Source: Peribolospora baueri
Taxonomy: Eukaryota
Direction of reading: 5' to 3'
NCBI GenBank assembly: GCA_029717555.1
Contig: JAMDHS010000035.1
Coordinates: 1-64,000, forward strand
Length of the DNA stretch: 64,000 bases
A program made the position numbers and the translations under genes. The notes under the pieces are model-generated. The model was not told where the DNA came from, searched no databases, and worked only from the letters and a program-made list of their open reading frames with translations. Positions 4,614-61,775 of the stretch are shown here, piece by piece; positions within the stretch are counted from its first letter, which is position 1; each line of letters starts with the position of its first letter.

Positions 4614-5033
4614 AGAGCTCTTGGCCGCTCGACGGATCCTCTCCTTTCCTCCTCCTACGTACATTGTCATCGTATCGTACAAGCGATCGATCGGCCAGCG
4701 TTCGTCGTCGTTTGATTGCTCGTTGTCAATTAAGCACGTTTGGAAGCTGCAATTAGGAACCGTACCAAAACGCTCCGAAGATAGAACAGAGCAAGAGTAG
4801 AGCAAAGATCCTTGATTAAATGGCGCGGGCATGACGCGCGTCTCGCTTCGAAAGCGAGGATTAAGGAAGGGGGGGAGGGGGGGTATATCTACACAAACGT
4901 TCAAGGCGTCCAACGTCATCCGAGGGAATCGTTCGCCCGAGGGGCGGGGGCGCGGCCAGACAATAAAACACACAGATAGCTCAAGAGCCGTCTCATCTCG
5001 TAATTTCAATACTTCTTTCCACCGCGCCTCTTC

Positions 5034-7723
5034 TTACGCTCTCGTCTCCTCTCCCCATTCCCTTCCACTTCCACTCCTGCGGCCCTCCTCGGCCATCTTG
5101 GCTTTCCAAGCCCTCTCGAAAGCCCACCGCTCCTCTTCGCCCCTCTCCTCGTCCACGCCCCAGAGCAGGATGAGCACGGGGAGGAGGACCATTGCTGCTA
5201 AGAAGATGAACCTGCGCACAAGGGAGGTGTGAGAGAGAGAGAGAGAGAGAGACGAAACACGTCACGTCAGCCGAAGGGCAAGCTCCAGGGAAGACGGCCG
5301 ACTCACCCGTTTCGAATGTCGTCCGTCTTGTCGCTGATAAAAGCGATCACCAACGGACCCACAAAACTGGACCCTTTGGCGGTGAGAGAGTAGAGAGAGA
5401 AGAGCCTGCCTTCGTGCGAGGGAGGGAGGAGGGCGGAGAAGACGGTGCGGGCGTAGGATTGGAAGGCGCCCAAGAGATGGCCTGAGCGAAAGCAACGGGG
5501 TATGGAATGAATAGGCGCGGCGCGTAGAGTGAGCCGCCCCGTCGTTGAAAGAGGACAATCGACGAAACACAAGTCGGAAAAAGACGCTAATGGCTCACCA
5601 AAAAAGATGGTGCCGACATACATCTCCTTCGGTTGAGTCAACCCTCCCCATCCCCATCCGAACAGACCTTTCTCCCTGACGCTAGGAATCAGCCCCAGAC
5701 ACCCGTACAGCGGGATCAACCCGGACAGCGCGACGATGATCTCAAACGTCCGCTTGTTGCTCGCCCCTCTAAGCACATATGGCTGTACGAAGAAGGGCCA
5801 CAGCAGGGCGCCTACGATACCCGACAGCGGCGCCGCGACGGCGAGGAGGATAATCGACGACGAGGGCATATGCAGGATCACCTTTGAGAAAAGGATCGCC
5901 GTGGAGACGATCGTTTGGAGGCCTGGCGGACGTGCGGAGGAGAAGGGCGAGCAGATCTCAGAAGCAGAGCCGGTCGTCCTCCCCTCCCCGCCCCTCCCCC
6001 GCCGGATCACTTACCATCGCTGAGGAAGAACCAAGCGGCCAAAAAAGCGGACAAGCATCGCAGCTTTCTGGCCTCCAAAAGCAGCTCCCACAAGTCCTTG
6101 CAGCTCCTTCCCGCCTCTCTCAACCATCCACACCCACACCTCCACGATCGCCACGACCGCCTTGCCCGACCCGCCTTTCCGTCCCTCCCACCGCCACGGC
6201 CGGCGCTCTTCCCGGCCCGGCTCGGCAATAGCGCGGCAGAAACGCCGCCTCCGATGCCCCACACAATACCAGGAAAGGCGACGACGAACCTCAGGGCTGT
6301 CGTGTCGCTCTTCTTGTCCATCCGATCGAACGGTATGATGAGAAGGAGCAGGAAGCTTATCGCCACAGCGTAGCCTATCGCGACGCCGCGGGAGGAGACG
6401 CGCGAGGTAGTGAGGGAGAGCAAGTCGTGGTAGGCTTGGGACGGGGTGTGCAGTTCCGAAGGCGGGATCAGGACGGAAGAGGCGGAGGAGGACGGGTCGG
6501 AGGGGTCGTTCGACGACCTGTCTATCAGAGGTCGGTCTTCTTCGTCTTCTTCCGACGCCCGGGAGTCGGAAGAAGACGCGTGCTCCGAGTCGTGGCTCGT
6601 TCGGACTCCCCATTCCACTGCTGGGTCATAAGGGCCTGCCCCATTCCGTACTCCCTCGCCGCCGTCCTTCAAAGCGCCGTCGGACGACGAGGAAGGAACC
6701 GTGGAGCCATTCCGGCCGTTCGCGTCGATGCTGCGCCTGCCCTTAACATGCCACTCTTCCAAGCCCTTCTTGTACACCTCTCCCCAGCCTCTCACCAAGC
6801 CTGGAAGGTAAGCGTTGAAAGCAATCATAGAGCCGCCATAGGAGGTGTTGGCGATTATGGCTAGAAGGGCAACGAGGGGCCAAACGACGGAGGAGGCAGA
6901 GAAAGGAGGCGCTAGGATGGCTATTAGAGCGATTGGGCCGGTGACGGTAAAGATGCTGAGGAGGCGATGGCGCTGCCGGACTGCGAGGTAGGAAGACGAC
7001 AAATGGACATGGATACGACAATCAGAAGGATACGTCGCAGAGGGTCGCCTGACCTTCTTGTTCCAATCGCAAGATCCGATGCTCCTAATAAGCTCCGCTC
7101 ACCATCATCCACAGCTCTCGCAATACAAATGCTCAACACAGCCAAAGCGGCCATGCCGGCACTACTGGTATATAAGCTGAACGCGCTCGTTTCGATCCAC
7201 CTCGAGCCCCATATCCTCACTTCACATCTGCTCTCGGGCGGAGGAATCGGAGGAGGCGGAGGAGGGGCGCCGGGCGAGACTGGTTTGGTGGGTACGAGTA
7301 GATCTGGAGGGGCCACGCAAGGCTGGTCGTGTGATGGGTAGAGATAGCCGTTGTCGCGGGCGTATTGCTCGAGGGCGATTGGAAGAAAAAAAGTCATTGC
7401 GCAGACTGCGAACACCTGGGAGGACAGGGGAAGAGTCAACACAACAAAACGTAACTATGAATGGAAAATCCAAGAAGCTAGGTCTACTCGGCTGGGTTGC
7501 TCACCTCGGAACAGGCTCCATAAGCATACCAGGCCCAAAGCTGGCTCTTCTTTGTCCTCGTCAACACCTTGGCCGCTGTGCGCGTTCCTTCGTCGCCTCG
7601 ACAAGCATCCTCGTCTTCTTCCTCGTCTGACACATGGGGTTCAGGATCGAGAGTCGCGAGGCTGTCTGCCCTGGAACGAGTCGGCGGCGGTGAGTTGGAG
7701 GTAGAGACGTCTGGAAAGACCAT
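5034..7723 (-). CDS. ATG22: Autophagy-related protein 22 (vacuolar MFS amino-acid effluxer), multi-exon
   Basis: Characteristic Atg22 motifs: [71 protein letters not shown], and QSYARTVFSALLPPSHEGRLFSLYSLTAKGSSFVGP. Confidence 0.9.
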
Positions 7724-17876: not shown

Positions 17877-18254
17877 AACGTCCCTCCCTCCGTCCGTCCT
17901 GCCATCCCTCCTCTTCGTGCTGTGAATATAACATATAACCCTTGAGGTCGTTTTGCGATTCATGCGCGATGCGATGCGATGCGATACGGTTTGACAGGGG
18001 CTCGCATGCCTACGAACGGAGTCGGACCGAATCGAGTCGAACGGTGGAAGGGAAAGAAAAGAAAATTTCTTCTCGATAGATCGGACGTCCTTGTCTACTC
18101 ACTCACCCGCGCGAGCCAATGATGATGATCGGGGGAACCGAAACGAACGAACCGAGTTATGGTCTACGATCTTCATTATGCGTACAAATACATGAGTGAT
18201 CGAGCTTCGTTCCTTCGTTCCTTCGTCGGCAGGTGAGGCCCAGGTCGCCGCGGG

Positions 18255-20592
18255 TCAGGTCGCGGCGGCAGCGACAGTCATGCCCTCCGCCTCCGCTGTC
18301 CGACGATCAGAAGCCAAGGGGCGAAGCTCGTGACGAATCGTGTCAGCGAGCGTCTCGACGTCGGCCACCTCTGCAACGCTCCACACCTCCACCTCTTCCT
18401 CTTCTTCTTCCTCTTCCCCTTCCATCCTTCCCCCAACCCCAGGCCCTCCTCCTCTTCTCTCCGCCGCAGCCCTCCGCTCAGCCTGCCAGAAAGAAATCTC
18501 TTTCCTCAGAAGATGAGCGCACGCTTTGCCAGGGCCGAGACATATGAACCTCCTCACGCCCCTCGCGTCCGCCTCCTCCTCCTCCCCGCCCACCAAGTCC
18601 GTCGGCGCTTGCGGGAGGGGTTCGAAGCCAAAGTTGGTCGTGTGCGGCGACGACCGTCCGTCGTCGAGGAGAGCGCGGATGGTGCGGCGCCATTGGACGG
18701 GGGAGGTGACGCCACGGAGGAGGTCTGTGCGTATCGTGGAGGGACGGGCGAGGGGAGAGGCGTTGTAGGACGACATGACGTGTCGGGCCGGTGCGCCGGC
18801 GGGGTGCGCAGAAGGGCGGGGAGAGAGGAGAGGGAGGGCGTCGACGGCCGGTCGAAGGGCGTGGACGACGGGGTGCATGAGCCTCGTCCCGAACGGCGCC
18901 ATCACGTGCGGCAGGTTGGCCGCCCGAGCGCCGAGGGAGAGCGCGCGTAGACGGGCGCAGGCGTAGTCCACGGCTGGGGAGGTGCCACTGAGAATGATCT
19001 GGGTGGACTGGCGGCAGGAGGGATGGGAGGAAGGAGGGTGTGAGCGTCATGCAGCATGGTTGAAGTGGGCTCGAAGGGAAGGGAAGCTCACGCTGTTGAT
19101 CTCGCCGATGCCGACCCAGTCCCCCTCCTCCAAGCCCATCTTCTTCAGCTTGGTCTTGTCCCCTTCCACAATCTCCTTGCCCACCTTCCTCACCTCGGCC
19201 AAAAGCTGGTGGAGCTTGCCGGGACGACAGACGACGGCGGAGAGCTGGTAAGGCGGTTCTGGCAGAGTCGAATTGGCGGTGGGAGAGGGGGAGGGGTTGC
19301 CTTGGAGGGGAAGGTGGGAAGAGACGAGGAGGCCGCGATGTCGGGAGAACTGGACGGCATGGCGGAGGGAGAGGAAGCCCTACGAGTACGAGAGCCAAGG
19401 ACCACGAGGAGAAGAGAAAGAAAAGAAGATGCGAGTCAGCTCTCTCCCTCCTTTTACACGCACCGACGCATTGGGCCCGTCGAACACTCACCCCAGCGGC
19501 TAGAGCGCCGACGGTACCGGCGCCATGCCCCGCCGTCCAAGCGCCTCGCTCGCCTTGGGCAAAGGTGATCCCAAAGTGCTCTTCGAGGACGGTCAAAAAG
19601 CTCGATCCGGTGGCGAGCATGGCCGGACCGGCGTTGTAAGGGGCCATGAGGGTGGCCTGGTCGCCGGCATGAGCTAGCTCGCGAAGGGAGAAGGAGGCGG
19701 CGCGTCTGTCTAGCAGGGCGTCCTCGAGACGAGCGGTGTGGCGGAGGATGTCTGCCCACTGGTCCGAAACGGAGCCGTCGGCGGCAGGAGATGATGATGA
19801 AGAAGAAGAAGACGAAAATAGGGCGTCGTCGACGTCGTCCCAGACCCTCCTCGCCTCGCCAAACGAGTCGTAGAGGTCCTTGGCCATGCCGGCGTAGGAA
19901 TGGGCCTGTGAGGGGAAGATGAGGGCGGTGCGTTTCGGTTTCCGACTAGGCCGAGCGGAGGAAGAGGAGGAGTTGAAGAAGGCGAGGGAGGAGCGAGTTC
20001 GGGCGGAGGTGGACGTGGCGGAAGGAGACCGGTCGGGGGAGGCTGCTGCGGCGGAGAGAGGGGTAGGAGGGGCACCGCGCGGGGACAAGGTGGACGAAGG
20101 TCTTGATCGTGGCCGGCGGTCTGAGGAAGAGGAGGAAGGGGTAAGGCGAAGGGGGGACGGGGATGACGACGGTCGTCGACTCTTGGGCGTCGGTGGAGTG
20201 GGGAACGCCGTGAGAGAAGGGGCCATGGGGTGGCCGTGCAAGAAGGTGTTGGGATCCCTGTACGCCCTCTGATAGCTCGATCCGGAAGCGAGAGCAAGGG
20301 CGTCGACGTCGCGGCGGGTGGAGGTGGAGAGGAGGCCGTGAGCGACGGTGGGATTTGCGTGGGTGGGAGAAGGAGGGAGGTGGAGGACGGGGAAAGAGGA
20401 GGTGGAGGGGAGACAGGGCGAGGCGGCGGCGGCAGGCAGAGCTGCGCTGGGATGAGCGCGAGGCGCCGACGTGGACCCCTGTCGGCGCGCTCCCAAGGAC
20501 GATAAGGACGATGGCGATGGGCACACCGATGGCGGACGCACGCACGAGCATGACGACCGGGCCGCGGGGGTGAGTGCGGAGGGTGGGGGCAT
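18255..20592 (-). CDS. Malonyl-CoA:ACP transacylase (FabD/MCAT)-like protein with degenerate active site, about 713 aa, 3 exons
   Basis: Exons 20592-19492, 19379-19092 and 19007-18255, all phase 0. FabD-order motifs: TALIFPSQA, AGMAKDLY, AGPAMLAT, GHGAG, RHRG, INSSTQIILSG, VMAPFGTRLM, TSPVQW, LGPGK. Confidence 0.85.
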
Positions 20593-21965
20593 GGCGGAGG
20601 GCGGTCGTTGGAGGTGCGGAGTGTGACTGCGAGTGGAGCAGGCGCAAGAGGACGACGACGACGACAACAACAACGACGACGACGAGAGCGGTGAGAGGGG
20701 CAGAGACGAGGAGACGAAAGAGAGAGGCGGCGGTGGTGGAGGAGGTGAACGGGTTATAAGAGGTCGAGTGCGCTGCGGCGGCGACCAAGGACAAGGACGC
20801 CGATCGACCGAGTCGTATGAACCGGACGATGACGCTCACGCGCGCGCTCGGCGACGACGGCGACGACGGCGACTATCGCGGGCGTGGAAAGAAATAAGGT
20901 AAAGGACATCCTCCTTCGCCGTCCGCATTCCGCATTCCATACTCCTCCCTCCCACTCCTCCCTTCTTTCCGCCCCTCCAAACCCCGGCCCATACTCGAGT
21001 CATCAAAGCCCGAACCGGGCGGGCGAGCGGGCGAGCGGGTGTGCGGAGTCCCCGCGCGGCGTTTCGACGGGCCCTCGCCCGGCTCACCGGCGGAAATTCT
21101 CGCCGGTGCTCGGAACTGGGGCCGGAACCAGAACTGGAACCGTAATAACGGCCGCCCCCGTGTTCCCCCGACGCGTTGCCTGTCGCCGCGGCATGCCCAA
21201 TCGAGGGGCCCCCCTCTTCGTTCCGGTCATGCCCAGCAACGGCAAAGCAAACAAAGCGATAAAAGCAAAGCATAGCATAGCAAACCAATCCAGTCCGAAC
21301 CAATCCAATCCAGTCCAATCCAAAGCAAAGATAGCGAGATAGATAGCTCACACGCTCCCGTACTCGTAGTCGATGCCACGTAATAATAACGCTAGTAGTT
21401 TATTTCTTTCCAGCGTCCCTCGGCAAGGACGAGGACGAGGATGTACCTAGGATACCTGTGACATGAGCAACAGGAGGCATGGATGGGTGGATGGACCGAA
21501 CGAGGAGATGGACGGAGTGGTGGTTTCGCTAGATCATCTTTTCGAGACGAGACAAGGGCGACGCGACGCGATCCGACCGACGGTCGGCGGTGCGGTGCGA
21601 AGCGCAGGGATGCATATGCGATGGCTGGCGGGTGGGTGGGTGGATGGGAGAATGGGAGGATGACGTCGGACGACGACGACGGCGGCGAAGGGCGACAGAG
21701 GAGGCGAGACGCGACGAAGGGAGAGCATAGGGAAAGACGGAGAGGCGAGGGAGGAAGGAAGGAAACGGACGAGTTGCAGTCTTCTTCTAGCGAAGCCTAG
21801 TCGACGAAGACGTCTTCGAACGACGCCGAACCGAACGAGACGAGACGACGACAGACGACAGACGAGACGAGAAAGAAAGAAAAAGCCAATGGCCTCGTTC
21901 GACCGCTCGCCGCGTCAACCTATCTACCGCCCTTCACTGCGTCCGTCAGCCTTCGCTCGTGGCGC

Positions 21966-33523: not shown

Positions 33524-36500
33524 CTACCTCCGACCGGCGGCGCCGGCAGCAGCGAACGCGTCCGTCCCCGTTGCCAACAGCGCCCGCCTGGCTCGAGCGT
33601 ACGCGCCGCCTCCCTCGTGGCCGCCGTCGTCGCCGTCGTCGGAAGAGGCGTCGTCAACGGAAGTCGTACCGATGCGCGTCGTCCAGCCGCTTCTCGGTGA
33701 GCTGGAAGGACGAGCGCGCGTCTCCTTCCTCTTCTCCTTCTCCCTCTCCGCCCCGGTGCTTACGACAGACCTCGTCAAATGCGAAGGCGCGCGCCCCTGC
33801 GCCTCCCGAAAGCGGCCCATGTCTCGATCGGGATTGTCCGCGTCGGCATCGAACTTGGTGTCGGGTGCGAGGCGCACCGATTTGCGTCGCTCTATAGGCA
33901 CCGAAGCGGGCGATCCTGGCGCGCGGAGAGAAGGCGTACGGGCGCCGAGCCGGGCGGTCGTCGTCGCGCCAGGTGCGCTCGCCGAGGGCGTCGTCGCGAC
34001 GGACGAGAGTCGGGCGCCAAGCGGAGCAGAGAGGGGAGGAAGTGGCACGAGGCTCTTCGGCCTGTTCTCGTCCACCTCTTCTCCAGTCGCCCTCGAGCCA
34101 TTTTCACCTCCAGGGCCAGTCGCAAGAGGCAAAATCGGAGCGGCCCCCTTCTTCTCCTTGGAACGTGCGACCTTGGTAGAGGACGTGCCGACCTCGGAAA
34201 CAGCCTTCTCGACCGTCTTCCTCTTCGTCTTCGCACCGCTTGACAACGAGCTCTTGGCTTTCTTCAACACGCCCGCTCCGCCACCCTTAGCCTCCTTGAT
34301 CACTGCATCCTGACCGCCCGCTCGTCTCGTCTCGTCCCTCTCCTTCTCCTTTTCTTTCTTCTTCGCCTCCCCTTTCTCTTCCTTCTCCACCTTCTCCTTA
34401 AGTTCCCGTTTCGGCTTCACCTTCTCCTCCACGCCCCCGCCGACCTCTTTACTCCGCCTCTTCTTCACCGGCTTCCCGTCCGGTCCCACCTCCACAGTGC
34501 TCTTAGGTCTCCTGATGAGCCTCCCCCCGCCCACTCCCTCTCCGTCGTTCACCCATAGCGGCTTCGAGTTAACCACCCGGATGAGGTGTCTGTTCTCGCC
34601 CTCCTCCTCCTCCGAACTGTCTTGTTCCTGCCCCCTATCGCCAGTCCCGCTCCCACCGGTGGTCAAGCTGTGCCAGTTTTGAGATAACCGATGCGGCTGG
34701 TGCCGATGAGACGTCGCCGCGAGGTAGCGCTCCTCGGCCTTGATCTCCTCAAGGCGCTCGTCGGTTCGCGTGTGCCAGCGAGAGCCCGAGTCGTGCATGC
34801 GGTCCTCGTGCCCGTGTCTGTACCCGTCCACCACGGAGCCGCCTTTTTTCTTCCCGCTGAACGCTCTCGAGATCCCCTCCCAGAAAGACAGGCTCGTCGT
34901 CCTTACGCGCCCGCCGCCGCTGCCGCGGCCCTTCGCCCCCGTCCGGCCATCCGACGAAATGGAACTCGCGCTCGCCACCCCCCTGCGCGGCGTCACGTCG
35001 AGCGAGGGTCCCACGGCCACGGACGCGGACGCTCTGTGGTGGGATCGGCCGAACGCCTTGGCGGCAAAGCGCGCGCCTTCGTCGGTCGTCTCGTCGTCCT
35101 GGTCGCCGCCTCGGCGTAGAGGAGACGCAGCGTAGACACTTGGGAACGGCTCGAGCAAAGACGAACCGGGAGCGGTGACGGACGTGAGCGTTGACAAAGG
35201 CTTGTACTCCTCCTTGGGGCGGGGCTGTGATCCGTCCGCGCCTCGTTCTGACGCGCTGGGACGGACGACGCCGACATCCGAACTAGCTTTCTTTTTCTTC
35301 TTCTTCTTCATCTTCTTCGGAGGAGTCTGTGGGAGACCCTTGACTTGCTTGTCGGCGTCCTCGATCTCGATCTGGCCCTGGCTCTGGCCCTGGCCCTGGC
35401 TCTGGCCCTGGCTCTGGCCCTGGCTCTGACTGTCCCTTCGGGAGTGGTCGACGCGAGAGGAGGGAAGGAAGCTCCCTTTCGCGCCCTCGCCGTCCTCGTC
35501 CAGCATATGCGGCGGGGGAATGCCGAGCCGAGGCTCGATGAAGGCTCGCCGGTAGTCCTCATTCGAATCGGTCTCGCTCGCCTCGCCGTCGTCGATATCT
35601 TCGGCTGCTGGTGCACCCGCATTTGACGAGTCGTGCGGTGACGATGGAGGAGGATGGTTGTTGGGGAGGATCTGCGAGGCGGACTGGGAAGGGGTGAGGG
35701 ACGACGATTCAAGAAAGTGGGACGTGCCGCCATCCAAGCCACGCTCTACGATACGGCGGCGGTCGTCAAGACGAAGAGAGTGGTAGGGGGAGTAAAGGAA
35801 AAGAAAGTCAGAGGAGTCAGAAAATGACACCGGACGGAGCGAACGGCTCACTGGAGCGAATCCGAGGTGGGTCCACTCGTTCGATCGTCACGCGCCGCAT
35901 CCGCGTCGGCCATCCTTGTTCTAGTGACGAAGACGGTGCCATGATCCTCTCCTTCCCATTTCCCCCCTTCTTCCTCTCCCCCTTCTCTTCCCCGGTCTCC
36001 TTTCGCTTCTCCTTCTCATTTCTATTCTCCTTCACTTCCTTCATTTCCCCTCCGTCCTCCTTCCCATCCTCAACCTTTCCCTCCTTCTTCTTCCCGTGCT
36101 GCTTCTCCATCGATGTTTCCCCCTCCTTCTCGCCGCGCTCCAAGCTGAGCAAGCGAGCATGCGCTCGTTCGAACACTCGCTTCCTAATCGCCTCGGCCCC
36201 GGCACCACGTATAGTCTTTCGCCTCTTCAACTCACCTCCTCCGCGTGCTGTAGCCGTTTCGTGTCCCGTCCACTCGGTGCTGGCGCCGACTCCGTCGAAA
36301 TGGCCGTTCGAAACGAGGACGTCAGGTACGGGATAGGCGTTGGCGTCTGTGCGAACGCCATCAAGGAGCAGGATGGCTTCTCGGGCGGCGTCCTGCATGA
36401 CGGCGCCGGCTTCACCCATGCACTTCATGCGCATTGTCAGAGCTTCTTTGAATGTGCGCCGTTTGACGCCCTCCAGCGCTATCATTTCGTTTCTCAGCAC

Positions 36501-37070
36501 GGCTTCGCATGCTTCTAACTCGCGCTGAAGGGAGGAATTGGCGCAACAAAGGTGAGAAAAGAAAGGAATAACAACAGCAATACGAAAAAAGGAGTGGGAC
36601 ATCCTTTCACTCAAGTTGTCCCGCCAGTCACTCTCGCTCACCTGGGCGTCTGCGAGCTTCTCAGCATGGGCGGTGTCCCCTTCAAGCGTCGGGCCGTGTC
36701 TCAAGTCGGACTTGTTGAGCTTCTTCTTGGAGGCCTTAATGAGCCTGGTGACAAGAATGTCCCTGTCCCTGACGACGGTCCTCAGGCTCTGCTCCCTCTC
36801 CTCAACATCCTTGAGGGCCTCCCGGTAGCCATCTATGGCGCGCACGTGGACGCCCTGGGCCTCGGCGACATCGTTGAGAAGAGAGGTGATGGCGGAAGCA
36901 ACAGAGGCAAGGTGGGGGGACGAGGAGGTCTGGGAGGTGCCCCATGCAGAAAGGGAGGAGGAGGCGGAGTGGGCGTGTCGAACGGCGGCGGCGAGGGCGT
37001 CGACATAGGCCTTTTCCTCGCGGATGAGCGAGTGCAGGAGGCGTGCGTCGGGTGGGGCAGGGGGGCTCAT
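33524..37070 (-). CDS. Pil1/Lsp1-like BAR-domain protein with long disordered C-terminal tail
   Basis: Helical N-terminus LLHSLIREEK...SLSAWG...YREALKDVEEREQSLRTVVRDRDILVTRLIK...KLADAQ|RELEACEAVL...VKRRTFKEALTMRMKCMGEAG. Joined to ORF 33524-35851 by an intron at about 35851-35747. Confidence 0.65.
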
Positions 37071-38160
37071 GGATGGGGGCCGGTGGTTGGGGGAACGAAC
37101 TATGTGTATGTCAGAACGGATTATATGGGAGTGGGAAGGGAGACTGGAAAAGGGGATGAGTCTATAAAATGAGAAGGACGCGACGATTACTACGAAGGAG
37201 TAACGAAAGGCGAGGTGGATCGGATTGTCCTAGCTATTGTACAAGCCAAGAGGAGCGGTAGAGAGTGACGGGGCAGAAGATGAGAGCGAGGGAGCGTGTA
37301 GGAAAGGCGGGCAGGAAGAAAGAAGAAGGTGGGAGAAATGTGTGGCAGAGGTCGACAAGGATGGAGGAGGGAACAAGGTGGGGGAACAAGGTGGGATTGG
37401 CAAGGCCGAGTGTATGCGGCGGATCGATCGGCGGCGGCTGCGGCAGACTCGAAGCATGCTGCGGCCGAGCCGACGGCCCGTTTTGAAGCGAATGACATCG
37501 CGGGGATGACGACGACGCCGACGACTTTCCGTGCTGTTAGTGAAGCGCATCTTACATCAAGTGGCCGTTTCTTTTATTTCTCTACGCAAAGAAACACTGG
37601 CGCAAGAGCACGCGTGGGTGGGTATGACCATTCCGATCCTTGGCTCTCCCAGGAGCCAAGCTGCAGGATAGGGCAGGGCCGCGGGGTGAACAAACGTACG
37701 GCAAAGTGAAGGAGACGATGGAGCATGTCATCGCATTGCTAGGCCATCCATCTGATCTGCCCTCCGCCGTCCCCGCCGCTTCCGAAGGATGCCATTCCCG
37801 AGAAACGGATGCGCTTCACCTTCCCATTCTTCGTCCACGCTCGCCGACCGGCGAACCACCCGGTCGAGGGCTCGCTGGGCGTTAGCATTCTTCCTAGTCG
37901 TCGCTCGGGCAGGCTGGCGGCTCGCACGTGCTTCCACGCGCTGCCGCAGCCGACGAAGCCGCGGTCTCTATGCGCACGGGTCGCTCGCCGTCGTCTTCCT
38001 CGTCCCCGACTTGCCCAGCTAACTACCTTAGAACTCATAATATAGACAGACAAGACGGCAAAGCCGCCAAGGTCATCGTCGCGGCCGCCTCTGTCTGATG
38101 CCCTAGCCCGCCTTCTCTCCGCCAGTGCCCCCACTCCGAGGCGCCTCCTCCGTCCGCACC

Positions 38161-56597: not shown

Positions 56598-59500
56598 TCA
56601 AAGCTTGAGCTCCTGCAAGATCCTCCTAGCGAGCTGTTGGTACTGCCAGCTGTTACCGCCGACCCTCCGGAACTGCAAGCCGTTGACGCCGAGCAAGAGG
56701 GGCACCTTTACGATGAACACCTCGAAACGGACGACGAGCTCGCTCACCGCCGCCCTGGCGTCGTTCGGACTGTTCATCACGCCGCCGGGGCTCATCAGGT
56801 TCGGGTTCGCCGTCGACAAGCCGTCTACGCGGAGCCGGTTCGGCGTGACGGCCGTCGGCATGGGGGCGTTACTGGCGTCCGTCGCAGCCGGCGTGGGATG
56901 CGTCTGAGCCGCTGGGCTCGGCATGCCCCGGCTCGGTGTAGTAGGGCAAGCGCCGCCGCTACCGGGGCCGTTGGCGTTGGCGTTGGCGGCCGACGCGTCG
57001 ATTTCGGTGCCCATGGTAAGCGAGCTGGCTCGGCTGAGAGGATTGTGGTGGTACGCCGAGTTGGCGTCGTGGGACAGGGCAGCTACGGAGGAGGTGCTTC
57101 CGGTGATGCTGCCCTCGCCCCGCTTGCTCCTCTCCCGGCTCCTGCCGCTCACGAACGAGATCCTGCTCGGCTTCCTCTTCGGCGGCTGATGATGTTGTCC
57201 TTGGTCCCCCTCATCGGGTGCGGCGTTGCGACTGCCCGCTCCCACGGATGATAGGTCGAGCGACGGCAGGTGCACGCACTCGTACCCGCCCTTGACCTCT
57301 CGGTACTGCACGCCTATGCGTTCGAGCACCTTGACCAGGTCGGCCCGGATGACGTGTACCGGTTTCGTGCTCGTCGTCTGCACGCTGAACAGGCCCTTGA
57401 GGAAAACGGGCTTGGCATAGTCGCTGGTCGGAGTGGTGACCAAGCTCGGCTGAGGACCGCCGGAGCGGGAGTAGGACGGGATCGCGCTGGCCTGCTCGGG
57501 CGACATCACGGGACCATGCCATCGGGCCGCCTCGTCGAGTGGCTGCGAGGCGGTATCGGTCGTTCGAGCGGGAGACGGCATACTGAACGCGCCGGTGATC
57601 GAGCCGGCCGTCTTGGGCCTCCTCGGAGAGCTTCGTTCCGGCGCGATGGCCACCCCGCCCGAGCGGCCGACGGAAGCGGCGCCAGCGATGGAGAACTGGC
57701 GATGGTGGTGGTTGTTCTTGGTGGGCGACCCCATCATGCGCGCCTCCCCCCCCACCGTGCCCGCCCGCCTAACGCCGGGTCCGGTCATCGCTCTCGGAGG
57801 AGACTCGAACACGTCCGACTCGTCCTCCTCTCCCGCCAAGCGCTCCATTCTCTCAGCGCCCATCGACGCGCGATGGTGGTCCTGGACCGCCCTCTGCTCC
57901 GCTGCGGCCGCTTCCTTGACATCCGGCAAGGGCTTGGTAGCAGGCGAGAACATGCTCGCGCGCTGGGCCGGCGCTAAGGGCGTGCTCGTGCTCGCGCTCG
58001 GCCGCGGCCGTCGCCGGGACGAGTCGGCATCGCCGCTGGCGACAGAGGGGGACCGACCGAGGAGCGAACCAAAGCGGCGGGCTAGGGTGCCGCCGAAAGG
58101 ACCGGCGCTGTGGGGCGGTTCGACAAGGAAAGGGTCGTCTCCGGGCGGCTTGCCCTTGCCCTCGTCTCGAGGGGACATCATGACGTGTACGCTCCGTCTG
58201 TGCTCCGCGTTGGCCCTGCTTCCGATGCGGGAAAGCCGGCGCGCCGGCGAAGGGACAATGGCCTCGTCATCGGCGTTTTCCTCGATCACGGGCGGCTGCG
58301 CAGCCGCCGCTGCGGCGGCGGCAGAAGGTCCGAGGATGGACGCGGGACGTCGAGCGGTCAAGCTCAAGCTGCGCTTGTGACCGCCTGCCGGCGGCAGACG
58401 GGGAGGGGGGGCGGGCATGCCGGCGGAAGGGGGACCGTTTCGGTAGTCGTCGTCGAACAACTGCATGGGGCTCTTGGGCGGCACGGCAGGCGCAGCATGA
58501 TGGTGGTGGTGGTCGACGCCGGCATCGCTGACGGCCCTTTCGAGTTCTTCGCCGTTGGTGCGAGAGCGGGGCATGGCGTTGATGCGGCCCGGAGGAGGCA
58601 CGCGCCCCTTGCTGTCCCTCTCCGCCGGGGCGGCCTTATTATAGGCTGCAGCCGCGGCCGCGGCGGGTCGCGGGGGCGTGAAGGTCTGGTGTGTGCTGTA
58701 GCTCGTGCCAGACACGTGGGACGCCTCTGGGGCGCGAGGGGTGGGGGGAAGCGCGTGAGGGGCGTTGAAGACCTGGGGGATGTCGTCCGGCGTCGGGCCG
58801 GGACCCATGGCGGCAGCGGCGGCCAAGTCCGACGGCGTCTGGTGCACGGGCGGACGGGGACCAACGAGAGACATGTCGGAGGCGGCGAAAAAATTCTGCC
58901 CGTATATGCGCTCGCGTTCCATCTTCTCCCTGACGAGGTAGTAGATGGAGATGAGGGGGTGAAAGCCGCGAGTGGGGTCCAGCGGCTCCTTGGCCGCGAG
59001 GGTGCCCGAGCCGGACATGGCGGGCGACAGATTGGCGCCATTGGCGTACGGTCCTGCCGAACCAGGTTCGCCGCCGACGCCATACGTGTCGTCCTTGTCC
59101 GCGCCGTTCGCCCCGGGACCGTTGGAGCCGTGGGAGAAAATGTGACCGCCGGCGATCTTCTTACGGTAAAAGTCGAAACCGGAGAATCGCTTGGAGCCAG
59201 CGCGAGACAGCCTGCCGTTGCTGTCCCCAATGCTTGCGGGGCTGCCGAGGATGCTATTGCGAGCGTTTCGCGCCTGCGAATTAGCGAACGCCGACGTGGG
59301 GCTTTCGATCGAAGTCAAGCTGGCGCCACCAGACTGGCCGAGGGAGACGAAGGAGGCGGCCGGGGAGGTGCTGGAATTCATGCGGGCCTCGTAAGCGCGC
59401 AGACACGCTTGGTACGCGTCGCCGGTGAGGATCTCGACCAGCTTGGCCTCGATCTCCTCTGGCGTGCCGAACTCAAAACCGGTCATGCCTTTGATGACTT

Positions 59501-61116
59501 CCGGATCGAGCGAGTCGGGTTGCAGCGGCTCCCGCGGTGGGAGGTGCGGATCTGGCGGACCGTCGAAGCCTTTGACCATCCAAGGGTGGGAGAGCACTTC
59601 GGACAATGTCGCTCGTTGAAGCGGGCTAATGTTGAGCATTCGGGAGAGAATGTGTTTGCATTCTGGAAAGAGAAAGAACCGGGGGGTGGACGAGTGAGCG
59701 TGATACACACATCGACAAGACGCCCATCAGCAAGGCGATGATATTCACCGCTGGTCAGCCAGTTGGGATAGTCGACGTAGCCTTTCTTGATCTTGGCATG
59801 CAATGCGGGCATGCTCTGGTCGTCAAAGGGGACCTTGCCACAGACGAGGACGTAAAGGACGATGCCAAAACTCCACACGTCGACCTCGGGACCGGTGTAT
59901 ACCTTGGCGTTGAGCAACTCGGGCGCGGCAAAATAGAGGGAACCGCAGAAGGTGGAGAGATGGGAGTGAGGCGAGTAAAGGTTGGAAAGACCAAAGTCGA
60001 TGATTTTGATGTTGCCCGTTTTGGAGATGAGGATGTTTTCAATTTTAAGGTCTGCCATCGGCGGGGGGTTGGGTTTAAAGAAACGAGCGGGCGGGCGTGC
60101 CGGCGACAGCGATCGCTCGGTGCGTTAGCCATGGACGGACGACAACGGAGGCCGGCGAACTCACCTCGATGGACGATGTTATTCCGATGACAGTACTCGA
60201 GCGCGCTTCCGATCTGCCTCATAAACTTTCTCGCCTTGCCCTCCCTCAAACGGCCGTGGGAAATGATAAAGTCGAGGAGCTGCCCTCCGTTGACGTACTC
60301 CTGGACCATGTAATAGTGGTTCGGGTGGACCATCATCTCTCGCATACCGCAGACGTAGGGGTGGTGGAGGAGGAGGCAAAGCGAGCCTTCGCGGATGGTG
60401 CGGATCTCCTTGGAAAGGTCCTTGGCCTGCGCCTTGGCGAGGAAAGAGCGCGTCGGCGGCGTGGGCGGCACCGGGTCCCCATTGTCGTCCACCGTCGGCT
60501 TGGGGTTCTGGGCGGCGGCGGTGGACGTGTGTCGTGGGATGATCTTGATGGCGACCTGGATGGCGGAGGAGGACGTGAAGCGACGGGTGAGCGAGCGCCC
60601 GTCTTCCCCTTTGACGGCTCGAATCGACCCTGCCCGACTCACCTTCTCGCCGGTGCCCATCTTGACGCCCAACTTGACCCTTCCCATACTCCCGGCACCG
60701 AGCGTCTTGCCGAGCGCATAATCGCCCAACGTCCTCCTGTTCCTCCTCTCCTTCTCTCGTTCTCGCTCTCGTTCCCGTTCCCGTTCTCGTTCCCGGTACA
60801 GCTCTCGTTCTCGTTCTCGATCCCGTTCCCGTTCCCGTTCCCGTTCCCGTTCTCGATCCCGATCTTTCTCCCTGTCCCTATCCCCATCGCCCTGCCTCTC
60901 CGGCTCGCCTAGCCGTTCCCTCTGGCCGACCCGGTCCAAGTCCCTCTCTCGATCCGCGTCCGCCTCCCGCATCCTCTCGCCATCGCCGTCCGGCCGTCGT
61001 CGTTCTCGTTCCTCCTCTCCCCTCTCCATGATTATGGTTGTCGCCGGCAAACCGGCCTCTGGGTTTTGAAAGCGAGGCTCGCGGTCGTCGTTCTCCGGCT
61101 CGCGCTCCTGGTCCAT
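56598..61116 (-). CDS. KIN1: Kin1/MARK-family Ser/Thr kinase with C-terminal KA1 domain, multi-exon
   Basis: [120 protein letters not shown], and KA1 [31 protein letters not shown]. The start is tentative. Confidence 0.93.
60757..60858 (-). repeat. Coding hexamer repeat (CGGGAA/CGAGAA) encoding an Arg-Glu dipeptide tract in the Kin1 N-terminus
   Basis: Encodes [36 protein letters not shown]. Confidence 0.85.
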
Positions 61117-61775
61117 GTGCGAATCGGATTGAATCCGGCGGGCGGGGGCGAGGAGGGCAGGAAGAAGGGAGGGAGGGAGGAACGACGAAAGACGAAAGAG
61201 GATGGCGGGGTGGGATGATGGAAGGGAGCGAGGATGGGAAGACGGGAAGGAGGGAGAGGGTGGTCGTCGTCGTCGACCCGGTCGAACCGACGATAGGCGG
61301 CGGGACGGTGGTGAAGGAGGGAGGCCGAGGTGGCGATGGTGGTGGTGAAGGGGAAGGCGGCGCTGGAGGTGGACCTGTCGCTGGCGCTGGAGCTGGAGCT
61401 CGACGACGTCGTCGACGTCGACCTCAAGTCCGAGTTCGACTGGGATGGATGGAATGGATTGGCTTGGCCTTGGCCTTGGACTGCGCTCGATTCCATCCGC
61501 CCGCCCCGTCTTCGCCCTCCTCACTCACCGCCCCTCGCCTCGCCTCGCCAGCCTCGATGGCGCGGAGCAACGAGATGGGAGGACGCGGACATACGCGGAC
61601 ATGAAGCGGGCAGGCACAGCATGGAGAAAGAGAAACGTGCAGAGGGGGCCGCCACGCGAGCCGAGCCAAGCCTCTCTCTTCTCGGCCGTACCGCGCACTC
61701 GCACAAGGCACTTATTATTACTTGCTTGCTTGCGCTCGCCGGGCCGCCCCGGTCTCGCCGATGGTACTTACGTAC

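Follow-up and report, generated by a model that had tools for sequence, protein, structure and literature searches.

A predicted transacylase-dead malonyltransferase derivative encoded by Peribolospora baueri and its probable retention for a non-catalytic role

Why would a fungal lineage maintain a protein with the fold of a malonyl-coenzyme A (CoA):acyl carrier protein (ACP) transacylase after losing the residues that perform the reaction? The question is raised by a locus of Peribolospora baueri located in contig JAMDHS010000035.1 (assembly GCA_029717555.1), of which we analysed positions 1 to 64,000, hereafter the window. On the minus strand, from position 20592 to 18255, the window carries three coding pieces which, when spliced, total 713 amino acids and correspond to a protein with the fold shared by bacterial FabD and mitochondrial MCAT (Mct1 in yeast). 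An initial annotation of the window had described the product as a catalytically dead paralogue, with Gly in place of both catalytic residues, that is kept for a scaffold role. The protein indeed appears to be dead as a malonyl transacylase, because malonate cannot be passed from CoA to ACP by the ping-pong mechanism when the nucleophile is missing. It belongs to a clade of derivatives, called GHG-type here after the altered nucleophile motif, and we favour, with some reserve, the explanation that these proteins have lost transacylase activity and have kept the fold for a non-catalytic binding or structural role in mitochondria. The gene and the residues on which the argument turns are as follows.

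19492..20592, minus strand: exon 1, 367 amino acids (residues 1-367), a leader rich in Ser, Pro and Arg followed by the first part of the MCAT fold, which includes FPSQAHS and GHGAG
19903..19914, minus strand: PSQA of the oxyanion loop (canonical PGQG), which retains the Gln but neither Gly
19522..19524, minus strand: Gly357 (codon GGC), the nucleophile position of GHGAG, occupied by Ser in 49 of 49 canonical rows of the alignment
19380..19491, minus strand: intron 1, 112 nucleotides, GTGAGT..TAG, phase 0, shifting the frame if retained
19092..19379, minus strand: exon 2, 96 amino acids (residues 368-463), the RHRG helix, a short linker and the start of the ferredoxin-like subdomain
19335..19337, minus strand: Arg382 (codon CGC), which precedes Gly in RHRG and is the counterpart of the malonyl-carboxylate Arg; kept
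19008..19091, minus strand: intron 2, 84 nucleotides, GTGAGC..CAG, phase 0, with an in-frame stop at 19047-19049
18999..19097, minus strand: N-S-x-x-Q motif with Asn462 (19095-19097) and Gln466 (18999-19001), spanning intron 2; kept and clade-invariant
18255..19007, minus strand: exon 3, 250 amino acids (residues 464-713; 19007..18258) and the TGA stop (18257..18255), comprising the remaining fold, a Glu-rich tract and a clade-specific C-terminal extension
18888..18890, minus strand: Gly503 (codon GGG), the catalytic-His position of APFGTRLM, occupied by His in 49 of 49 canonical rows
18525..18554, minus strand: RRFICLGPGK with the clade-invariant Cys619, from sequence and alignment
18378..18392, minus strand: VEVWS, the first part of the conserved C-terminal extension of the clade, from alignment

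We regard the locus as a genuine spliced gene. Retention of intron 1 would shift the frame, and intron 2 carries an in-frame stop, so that both need to be removed; past intron 1, homology runs on in the shifted frame, and over both splice junctions the alignment of the spliced product with its relatives is colinear, in agreement with the unbroken three-exon frame and the FabD motif order of the initial annotation. The part of the frame that encodes the domain (498 codons) contains no stops, compared with a mean of 11.1 in mononucleotide shuffles, none of 2000 of which was stop-free. Third-position guanine-plus-cytosine content is 0.72-0.82 in the exons versus an overall content of 0.54 and 0.62 in the introns. 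Over the leader (215 codons), none of the three frames is interrupted and 171 of 2000 shuffles contain no stop; the open frame of this part is uninformative on coding. Across positions 19946-20872 of the minus strand, which include the leader region, the coding strand contains very little A and, as a result, has no stop in any of its three frames over more than 300 codons; long open frames in the P. baueri genome are by themselves weak evidence of coding. The leader does have the composition first described for it, that of some 220 residues rich in Ser, Pro and Arg, with 68 Ser or Thr, 38 Pro and 22 Arg or Lys in residues 1-215.

Logan contigs from two DNA sequencing runs (X1 and X2) each span positions 18000-20900 with no differences and no gaps, at a word depth over the gene region of about 111 and 88, respectively. 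Both runs may derive from the source sample of the assembly itself, so that the contigs exclude a slip of assembly and are not equal to an independent isolate. Just upstream of the start codon lies a trinucleotide repeat of the GAC/AAC type (20619-20715), the word depth of which is ~28 times that of its surroundings in all four runs (3080 versus about 111 in X1); this motif is thus widely dispersed in the genome. In the other two runs (X3 and X4), which represent a related organism, the contigs stop at the repeat and give no usable cover of the gene.

The product is a predicted member of the Acyl_transf_1 superfamily with the FabD-MCAT fold. Scored exon by exon rather than as a spliced protein, it gave partial matches to the NCBIfam models TIGR00128 (fabD; E values of 2.7e-5 for exon 1 and 3e-6 for exon 3) and mdcH (2e-9), the fabD scores of 23.8 and 26.9 bits per exon missing the curated cut-off of that equivalog (260.9 bits). 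HMMER searches against solved structures returned FabD (E value down to 8.4e-5) and human MCAT, including PDB 8csp and other structures of small-subunit assembly, among the matches, with FPSQAHS aligned opposite FPGQGSQ, GHGAG opposite GHSLG, and APFGTRLM opposite APFHSSLM. The Gly codons at the two catalytic positions and the altered oxyanion loop are as the initial annotation had read them, and the elements that it listed as kept, namely the Arg of RHRG, TSPVQW and GPGK, are all found in the protein. Pfam searches with single window exons gave no match; PF00698 was found in all 10 of the clade relatives described below, and tblastn searches of the window with these relatives matched only the 18255-20592 locus. 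Word-indexed protein searches with the domain part of exon 1 and with exon 3 found nothing, probably because low-complexity words crowded out the relatives, and the ESM Atlas returned generic malonyltransferase clusters only. The fold, an alpha/beta-hydrolase-like core with a ferredoxin-like subdomain, was checked on a relative from Malassezia cuniculi (P0010) rather than on the window protein. The AlphaFold model of this relative has a predicted local distance difference test (pLDDT) score of 81.4, with most of the domain above 90 and residues 1-107 below 50 (disordered). Its top Foldseek matches are FabD and MCAT (E values down to 2.9e-21, target-normalised template modelling (TM) scores of about 0.86-0.92); human MCAT appears at rank 16 (2c2n) and at rank 19 (8csp chain 8, target-normalised TM score 0.84).

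A full HMMER scan of 1.84 billion representative sequences with exon 3 yielded 69 matches at E values of 1e-3 or below, 15 of them at 1e-10 or below, and the best of these are long eukaryotic proteins. Their named sources, Tilletia horrida, Malassezia cuniculi, Malassezia caprae, Jaminaea rosea, Exobasidium rhododendri, Pseudozyma hubeiensis and Ceraceosorus bombacis, represent three classes of Ustilaginomycotina (Ustilaginomycetes, Exobasidiomycetes and Malasseziomycetes), and the database entries are called S-malonyltransferase, polyketide synthase or hypothetical protein. All 10 near-full-length members have GHG[S/T/A/M]G at the nucleophile motif, and the nucleophile position is Gly in 14 of the 14 distinct sequences that cover it (the ten members, three metagenome loci and the window). 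A nucleophile shifted in register, such as the Ser of GHGSG, was considered and rejected: the residue after Gly is Ser, Thr, Ala or Met (Ala in the window) and thus offers no conserved alternative.

Losses extend well beyond the nucleophile. The catalytic His is present in 7 of the 10 members and replaced by Gly, Phe or Asn in the other three; across the 17 sequences covering this site it is missing from five, including one fragment with Tyr and the window with Gly. The Arg before Gly in RxRG is kept in 7 members and is Gln, Gln or Tyr in the remaining 3, and most members retain the GQGSQ loop. When 61 alignment columns conserved in at least 85% of the 49 canonical rows were compared, canonical proteins kept a median of 59 (minimum 48), GHG-type members 34-46 and the window 38. 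Every one of the ten members has lost the Ser and the Glu of GHSxGE, the Ala and Phe preceding the His, the residue following the His, a Pro, and the Gln upstream of PVxW; the Gln of NAQP is kept in 4 of them. The window protein has Gly at the positions of both Gln. All ten members and the window retain both the Asn and the Gln of N-S-x-x-Q. The clade has, in addition, 69 residues that are invariant across the ten members, including those of RF[IV]C[LV]GPG and [YFV]EVWS and of an insert (LFPxGCxxPxxxxxTWxF) that sits after the RxRG helix, at the site of the short linker in window exon 2. A second alignment yielded a comparable set of invariant residues. Conserved linear motifs (AGKGA..YG.R and P.P..T..S.PS..F) are found near the N-termini of the other clade members, in the region that AlphaFold leaves disordered in the M. 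cuniculi protein. The Ser-to-Gly change throughout the clade and over three classes, the repeated losses of His and Arg, and the disappearance of further residues conserved in active enzymes lend good support to the prediction of catalytic death, and the GHG-type sequences contradict the database name '[acyl-carrier-protein] S-malonyltransferase'.

One member record, P0013 from M. caprae (residues 429-577; 4969-5496 in the metagenome contig L006), is an apparent mis-built gene model, which starts inside the domain and has its C-terminus fused to a downstream emp24/GOLD gene. It is the only one of the ten members to match PF01105, and an emp24/GOLD gene also lies downstream in L006. In the window gene, a GAA/GAG repeat (18379-18427) encodes about 11 consecutive Glu directly before VEVWS, where the relatives have linkers of variable length.

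In an IQ-TREE phylogeny of 30 rows rooted on alpha-proteobacterial FabD, the window protein and the 10 GHG-type proteins form one clade (support 100/99). The sister of this clade consists of 9 canonical GHSxGE rows of the Pucciniomycotina-type Mct1 (8 named and 1 unnamed; 100/99); the node uniting both clades also has a support of 100/99. The window protein is sister to all other GHG-type members, with an end branch of 1.24. The minimum number of changes on the tree is one for Ser-to-Gly, three for the loss of His and two for the loss of Arg; on this topology, the nucleophile Ser changed to Gly once, in the common ancestor of the GHG clade. A FastTree phylogeny of 66 rows (exon 3 matches of at least 200 amino acids plus references) placed no canonical sequence inside or beside the clade; the other named fungal matches to exon 3 came from chytrids, Blastocladiomycota, Mucoromycota, Zoopagomycota and one ascomycete. 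The best 120 of 490 matches to Sporobolomyces Mct1 comprised Pucciniomycotina, early-diverging fungi and alpha-proteobacteria and contained no Ustilaginomycotina or Agaricomycotina protein; more distant canonical copies would have been missed among these 120, and the search says nothing either way on a second copy. Agaricomycotina Mct1 or MCAT was present neither among the named exon 3 matches nor among the best 120 matches to the Pucciniomycotina protein; in this group the protein must have diverged further, differ in length or be lacking.

Because the clade stands where the Mct1 orthologue of Ustilaginomycotina is expected, as sister to Pucciniomycotina Mct1, the GHG-type protein probably corresponds to the Mct1 of this lineage, and not to an extra paralogue. 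The description of the window gene as a paralogue in the initial annotation found no support, given this orthologue position and the lack of a canonical sequence beside the clade in the FastTree phylogeny. A bolder proposal is that Ustilaginomycotina have no Mct1/MCAT counterpart other than the GHG-type protein, which would leave the subphylum without a competent mitochondrial malonyl transacylase; we put this forward tentatively, as a possibility that we are inclined to doubt.

The GHG clade evolves no faster than the active Pucciniomycotina enzymes, the root-to-tip distances from the basidiomycete node being 1.29-1.96 for its members (1.79 for the window) versus 1.48-2.27 for canonical Pucciniomycotina proteins. 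Two Malassezia-like loci (L001 and L005), both intact, encode proteins that are 60% identical, with a proportion of nonsynonymous differences (pN) of 0.276 and of synonymous differences (pS) of 0.845 (saturated). The frames have remained intact after divergence on this scale, which therefore points to purifying selection.

These observations can be accommodated as follows. An ancestral single Ser-to-Gly change would have ended malonyl transfer in the GHG clade, after which the remaining catalytic residues would have drifted in several lineages, the window copy losing the His and both oxyanion-loop Gly in the process. Purifying selection would meanwhile have held the fold, two residues of the phosphopantetheine groove and the clade-specific C-terminal extension. 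Inside mitochondria, the former substrate groove might then hold a pantetheine-bearing partner by non-catalytic binding, with holo-ACP, acyl-ACP or a CoA ester as candidates; alternatively, the fold might serve as a structural module. According to the available part of a preprint, which also sets out the roles of the Ser-His dyad and the malonyl-carboxylate Arg in FabD, Asn162 and Gln166 of E. coli FabD line the phosphopantetheine groove. From motif spacing, we infer that the Asn and Gln of N-S-x-x-Q are the counterparts of these two residues, and it is their invariance that suggests a binding role for the old groove. Mitochondrial targeting of the window protein is plausible, its first 90 amino acids containing 5 basic and 0 acidic residues and the N-termini of the relatives resembling presequences.

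Several points weigh against this explanation, either in general or for the window copy. The gene model was read from DNA alone, the mitochondrial location has only the leader charge and the presequence-like N-termini of the relatives as its basis, and the binding of ACP, CoA or another partner is extrapolated from conserved residues, whose conservation in N-S-x-x-Q could be purely structural. In the Malassezia-like metagenome contig L006 (3001-4670), the syntenic copy of the GHG-type gene is a pseudogene: at least three in-frame stops, which fall on conserved Tyr/Trp positions, interrupt it, and its frame is shifted at least four times. Across the compared stretch, L006 does not differ from L007, and its three flanking genes are intact and in the same order as in L005 and L001, with 57-84% protein identity to L005. 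The gene is therefore dispensable in at least one Malassezia-like lineage. The window copy keeps 49 of the 69 clade-invariant residues (71%) versus 87-99% for the other members in leave-one-out comparisons, and has a short unrelated linker in place of the clade insert, so that the invariant Pro, Thr, Trp and Phe columns are gaps. A profile built from the N-termini of 8 members found no match to the window leader at E values up to 10. The missing residues, insert and N-terminal motifs may reflect a different way of working or relaxed selection.

The same profile likewise left the Pucciniomycotina leaders unmatched, and the C-terminal block of the clade is present in the window protein, as RRFICLGPGK and VEVWS. 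We see the window copy as the earliest-branching and most stripped-down intact member among the GHG-type proteins compared; its basal position and missing additions fit an early branch that never gained them and fit later loss equally. As to the claim of the initial annotation that the protein is kept, the part that concerns the clade stands, with rates like those of active enzymes and a pN of 0.28 versus a pS of 0.85, and it is weaker for the window copy and in the light of the pseudogene.

The window copy could, on this account, be a relic heading for loss, its transacylase long dead and no other function holding the gene, which we consider unlikely. Its retention of clade-invariant residues is the lowest, the insert and N-terminal motifs are missing, its active site is the most degraded, the pseudogene of a related lineage shows that loss is possible, and open frames come cheaply in an A-poor strand, at least in the leader. 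However, the 498-codon domain frame is open where no shuffle was, the codon positions show the bias typical of coding sequence, both introns have canonical ends, the C-terminal clade motifs are intact, and the root-to-tip distance of 1.79 lies within the range of active enzymes, so that the long end branch agrees with an early split and not with faster evolution. There is next to no chance that the altered residues stem from an error in sequencing, assembly or gene modelling. Nothing was found in favour of this beyond the circumstance that X1 and X2 perhaps come from the sample of the assembly, whereas the contigs of the two runs are identical at ~100-fold word depth, the changes are multiple and separate, every relative has the same Gly at the nucleophile position, and the alignment is colinear across both splice junctions; sequencing error had been discounted from the outset, and we concur. 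Little credence can also be given to the idea that the GHG-type protein is still an enzyme, with altered chemistry such as malonyl-CoA hydrolysis or decarboxylation, or a direct transfer that bypasses the acyl-enzyme. Most members retain the GQGSQ loop and the groove residues, with Arg and His each in 7 of 10. The role of Mct1 in mitochondrial fatty acid synthesis is established, and the lineage would still need malonyl-ACP if the GHG-type protein is its only Mct1 counterpart. Yet His, Arg and other active-site positions have been lost independently, which is unexpected for a working active site; the variable residue after Gly offers no conserved substitute nucleophile, and the window copy is devoid of the Ser, the His and both loop Gly.

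A more specific form of non-catalytic role, which the initial annotation had put forward, is that the dead MCAT fold might be kept as a scaffold for assembly of the mitoribosomal small subunit, as in human MCAT. We regard it as improbable. The conserved linear motifs of the other members lie in a predicted-disordered region, and disordered extensions with linear motifs are common in ribosome-bound proteins. Moreover, the P0010 model superposes on chain 8 of 8csp, as noted above. The background to the proposal is correct for the human protein: in the available sections of PMC9892005, MCAT is a mitoribosomal small-subunit assembly factor that sequesters h31 and blocks the docking of h42 until its departure. 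A place for MCAT on particles of small-subunit assembly, in contact with h31 and the h42 site, is known for the human protein only. On the other side, nothing in this analysis links the window protein to the ribosome, the window copy has none of the conserved N-terminal motifs, and the yeast structures in those sections of PMC9892005 come without an MCAT-type factor. Nor is there a basic shift, the median net charge of the domain being -2 in GHG-type proteins, -8 in the window and -7 in canonical Pucciniomycotina proteins, which is a weak test.

The neighbours of the gene in the window, as identified by Pfam, are ordinary fungal genes and give no functional hint: ATG22, a vacuolar effluxer (6010-7098, minus strand), Pil1 of the eisosome (35820-37229, minus strand) and a protein kinase with a KA1 domain at its C-terminus (56601-61524, minus strand).

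The reading that we favour, a transacylase-dead MCAT derivative with a fold kept for non-catalytic work in mitochondria, has consequences at several levels. Mct1 homologues of these fungi that lack the Ser were not described in any paper returned by a literature search, with subscription journals outside its scope. Metabolic reconstructions of Ustilago, Pseudozyma and Malassezia that use the database name may credit these fungi with a step that they cannot carry out through the GHG-type protein. If this protein is the sole counterpart of Mct1, the malonyl-ACP needed for lipoate and acyl-ACP signalling would have to be supplied in some other way, or else the pathway would have been rewired, in an aerobic subphylum that includes the corn smut relatives and the skin yeast Malassezia. 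The MCAT fold would then have survived for a second, non-catalytic job, possibly older than the loss of the Ser, as the involvement of the human protein in mitoribosome assembly might suggest. Should there be no canonical copy, the feeding of mitochondrial fatty acid and lipoate synthesis becomes a directly testable question; should there be one, the GHG clade would be a clear case from nature in which an MCAT fold has been released from catalysis to take on another role. The proteins form a graded series, from active (Pucciniomycotina) through minimal dead (the window) and elaborated dead (the other members) to a pseudogene (one lineage), which would be useful for dissecting the non-catalytic work of the MCAT fold and is relevant to the second, still unexplained role of the human protein.

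Compared with yeast Mct1, human MCAT and FabD (EC 2.3.1.39), the window protein has the same motif order and, judging from a relative, the same two-subdomain fold, and it keeps the malonyl-binding Arg, the loop Gln, N-S-x-x-Q, PVxW and GPG. It shares an N-terminal leader with the mitochondrial forms, and the GHG clade is the branch closest to canonical basidiomycete Mct1. Unlike these enzymes, it is without the nucleophile Ser and the catalytic His, has replacements of the oxyanion-loop Gly, of the Glu of GHSxGE and of two conserved Gln, and, with its long leader and C-terminal extension, falls far below the fabD equivalog cut-off. The long-form Mct1 of Pucciniomycotina (for example in Sporobolomyces, Rhodotorula, Microbotryum and Mixia) is the sister clade and resembles the GHG-type proteins in length (about 550-600 amino acids), in its long N-terminal region, in an insertion that separates the first helix from the GxQxxLT motif, and in a C-terminal tail; it differs in retaining GHSxGE and the His and in having no GHG-clade N-terminal motifs. 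Yeast Rsm22 is comparable as a fold retained after the loss of its site, since, according to the available sections of PMC9892005, S-adenosylmethionine binding was lost and the methyltransferase fold kept. The two folds are different, and the role of Rsm22 in the mitoribosomal small subunit is seen in structures, whereas the window protein is known from sequence alone. Human MCAT is a functional parallel to what we propose, in that an MCAT fold does non-transacylase work in mitochondria (PMC9892005, in the same sections), and is thus capable of a structural job; the human protein keeps its active site and performs both roles, whereas the window protein appears to have lost catalysis.

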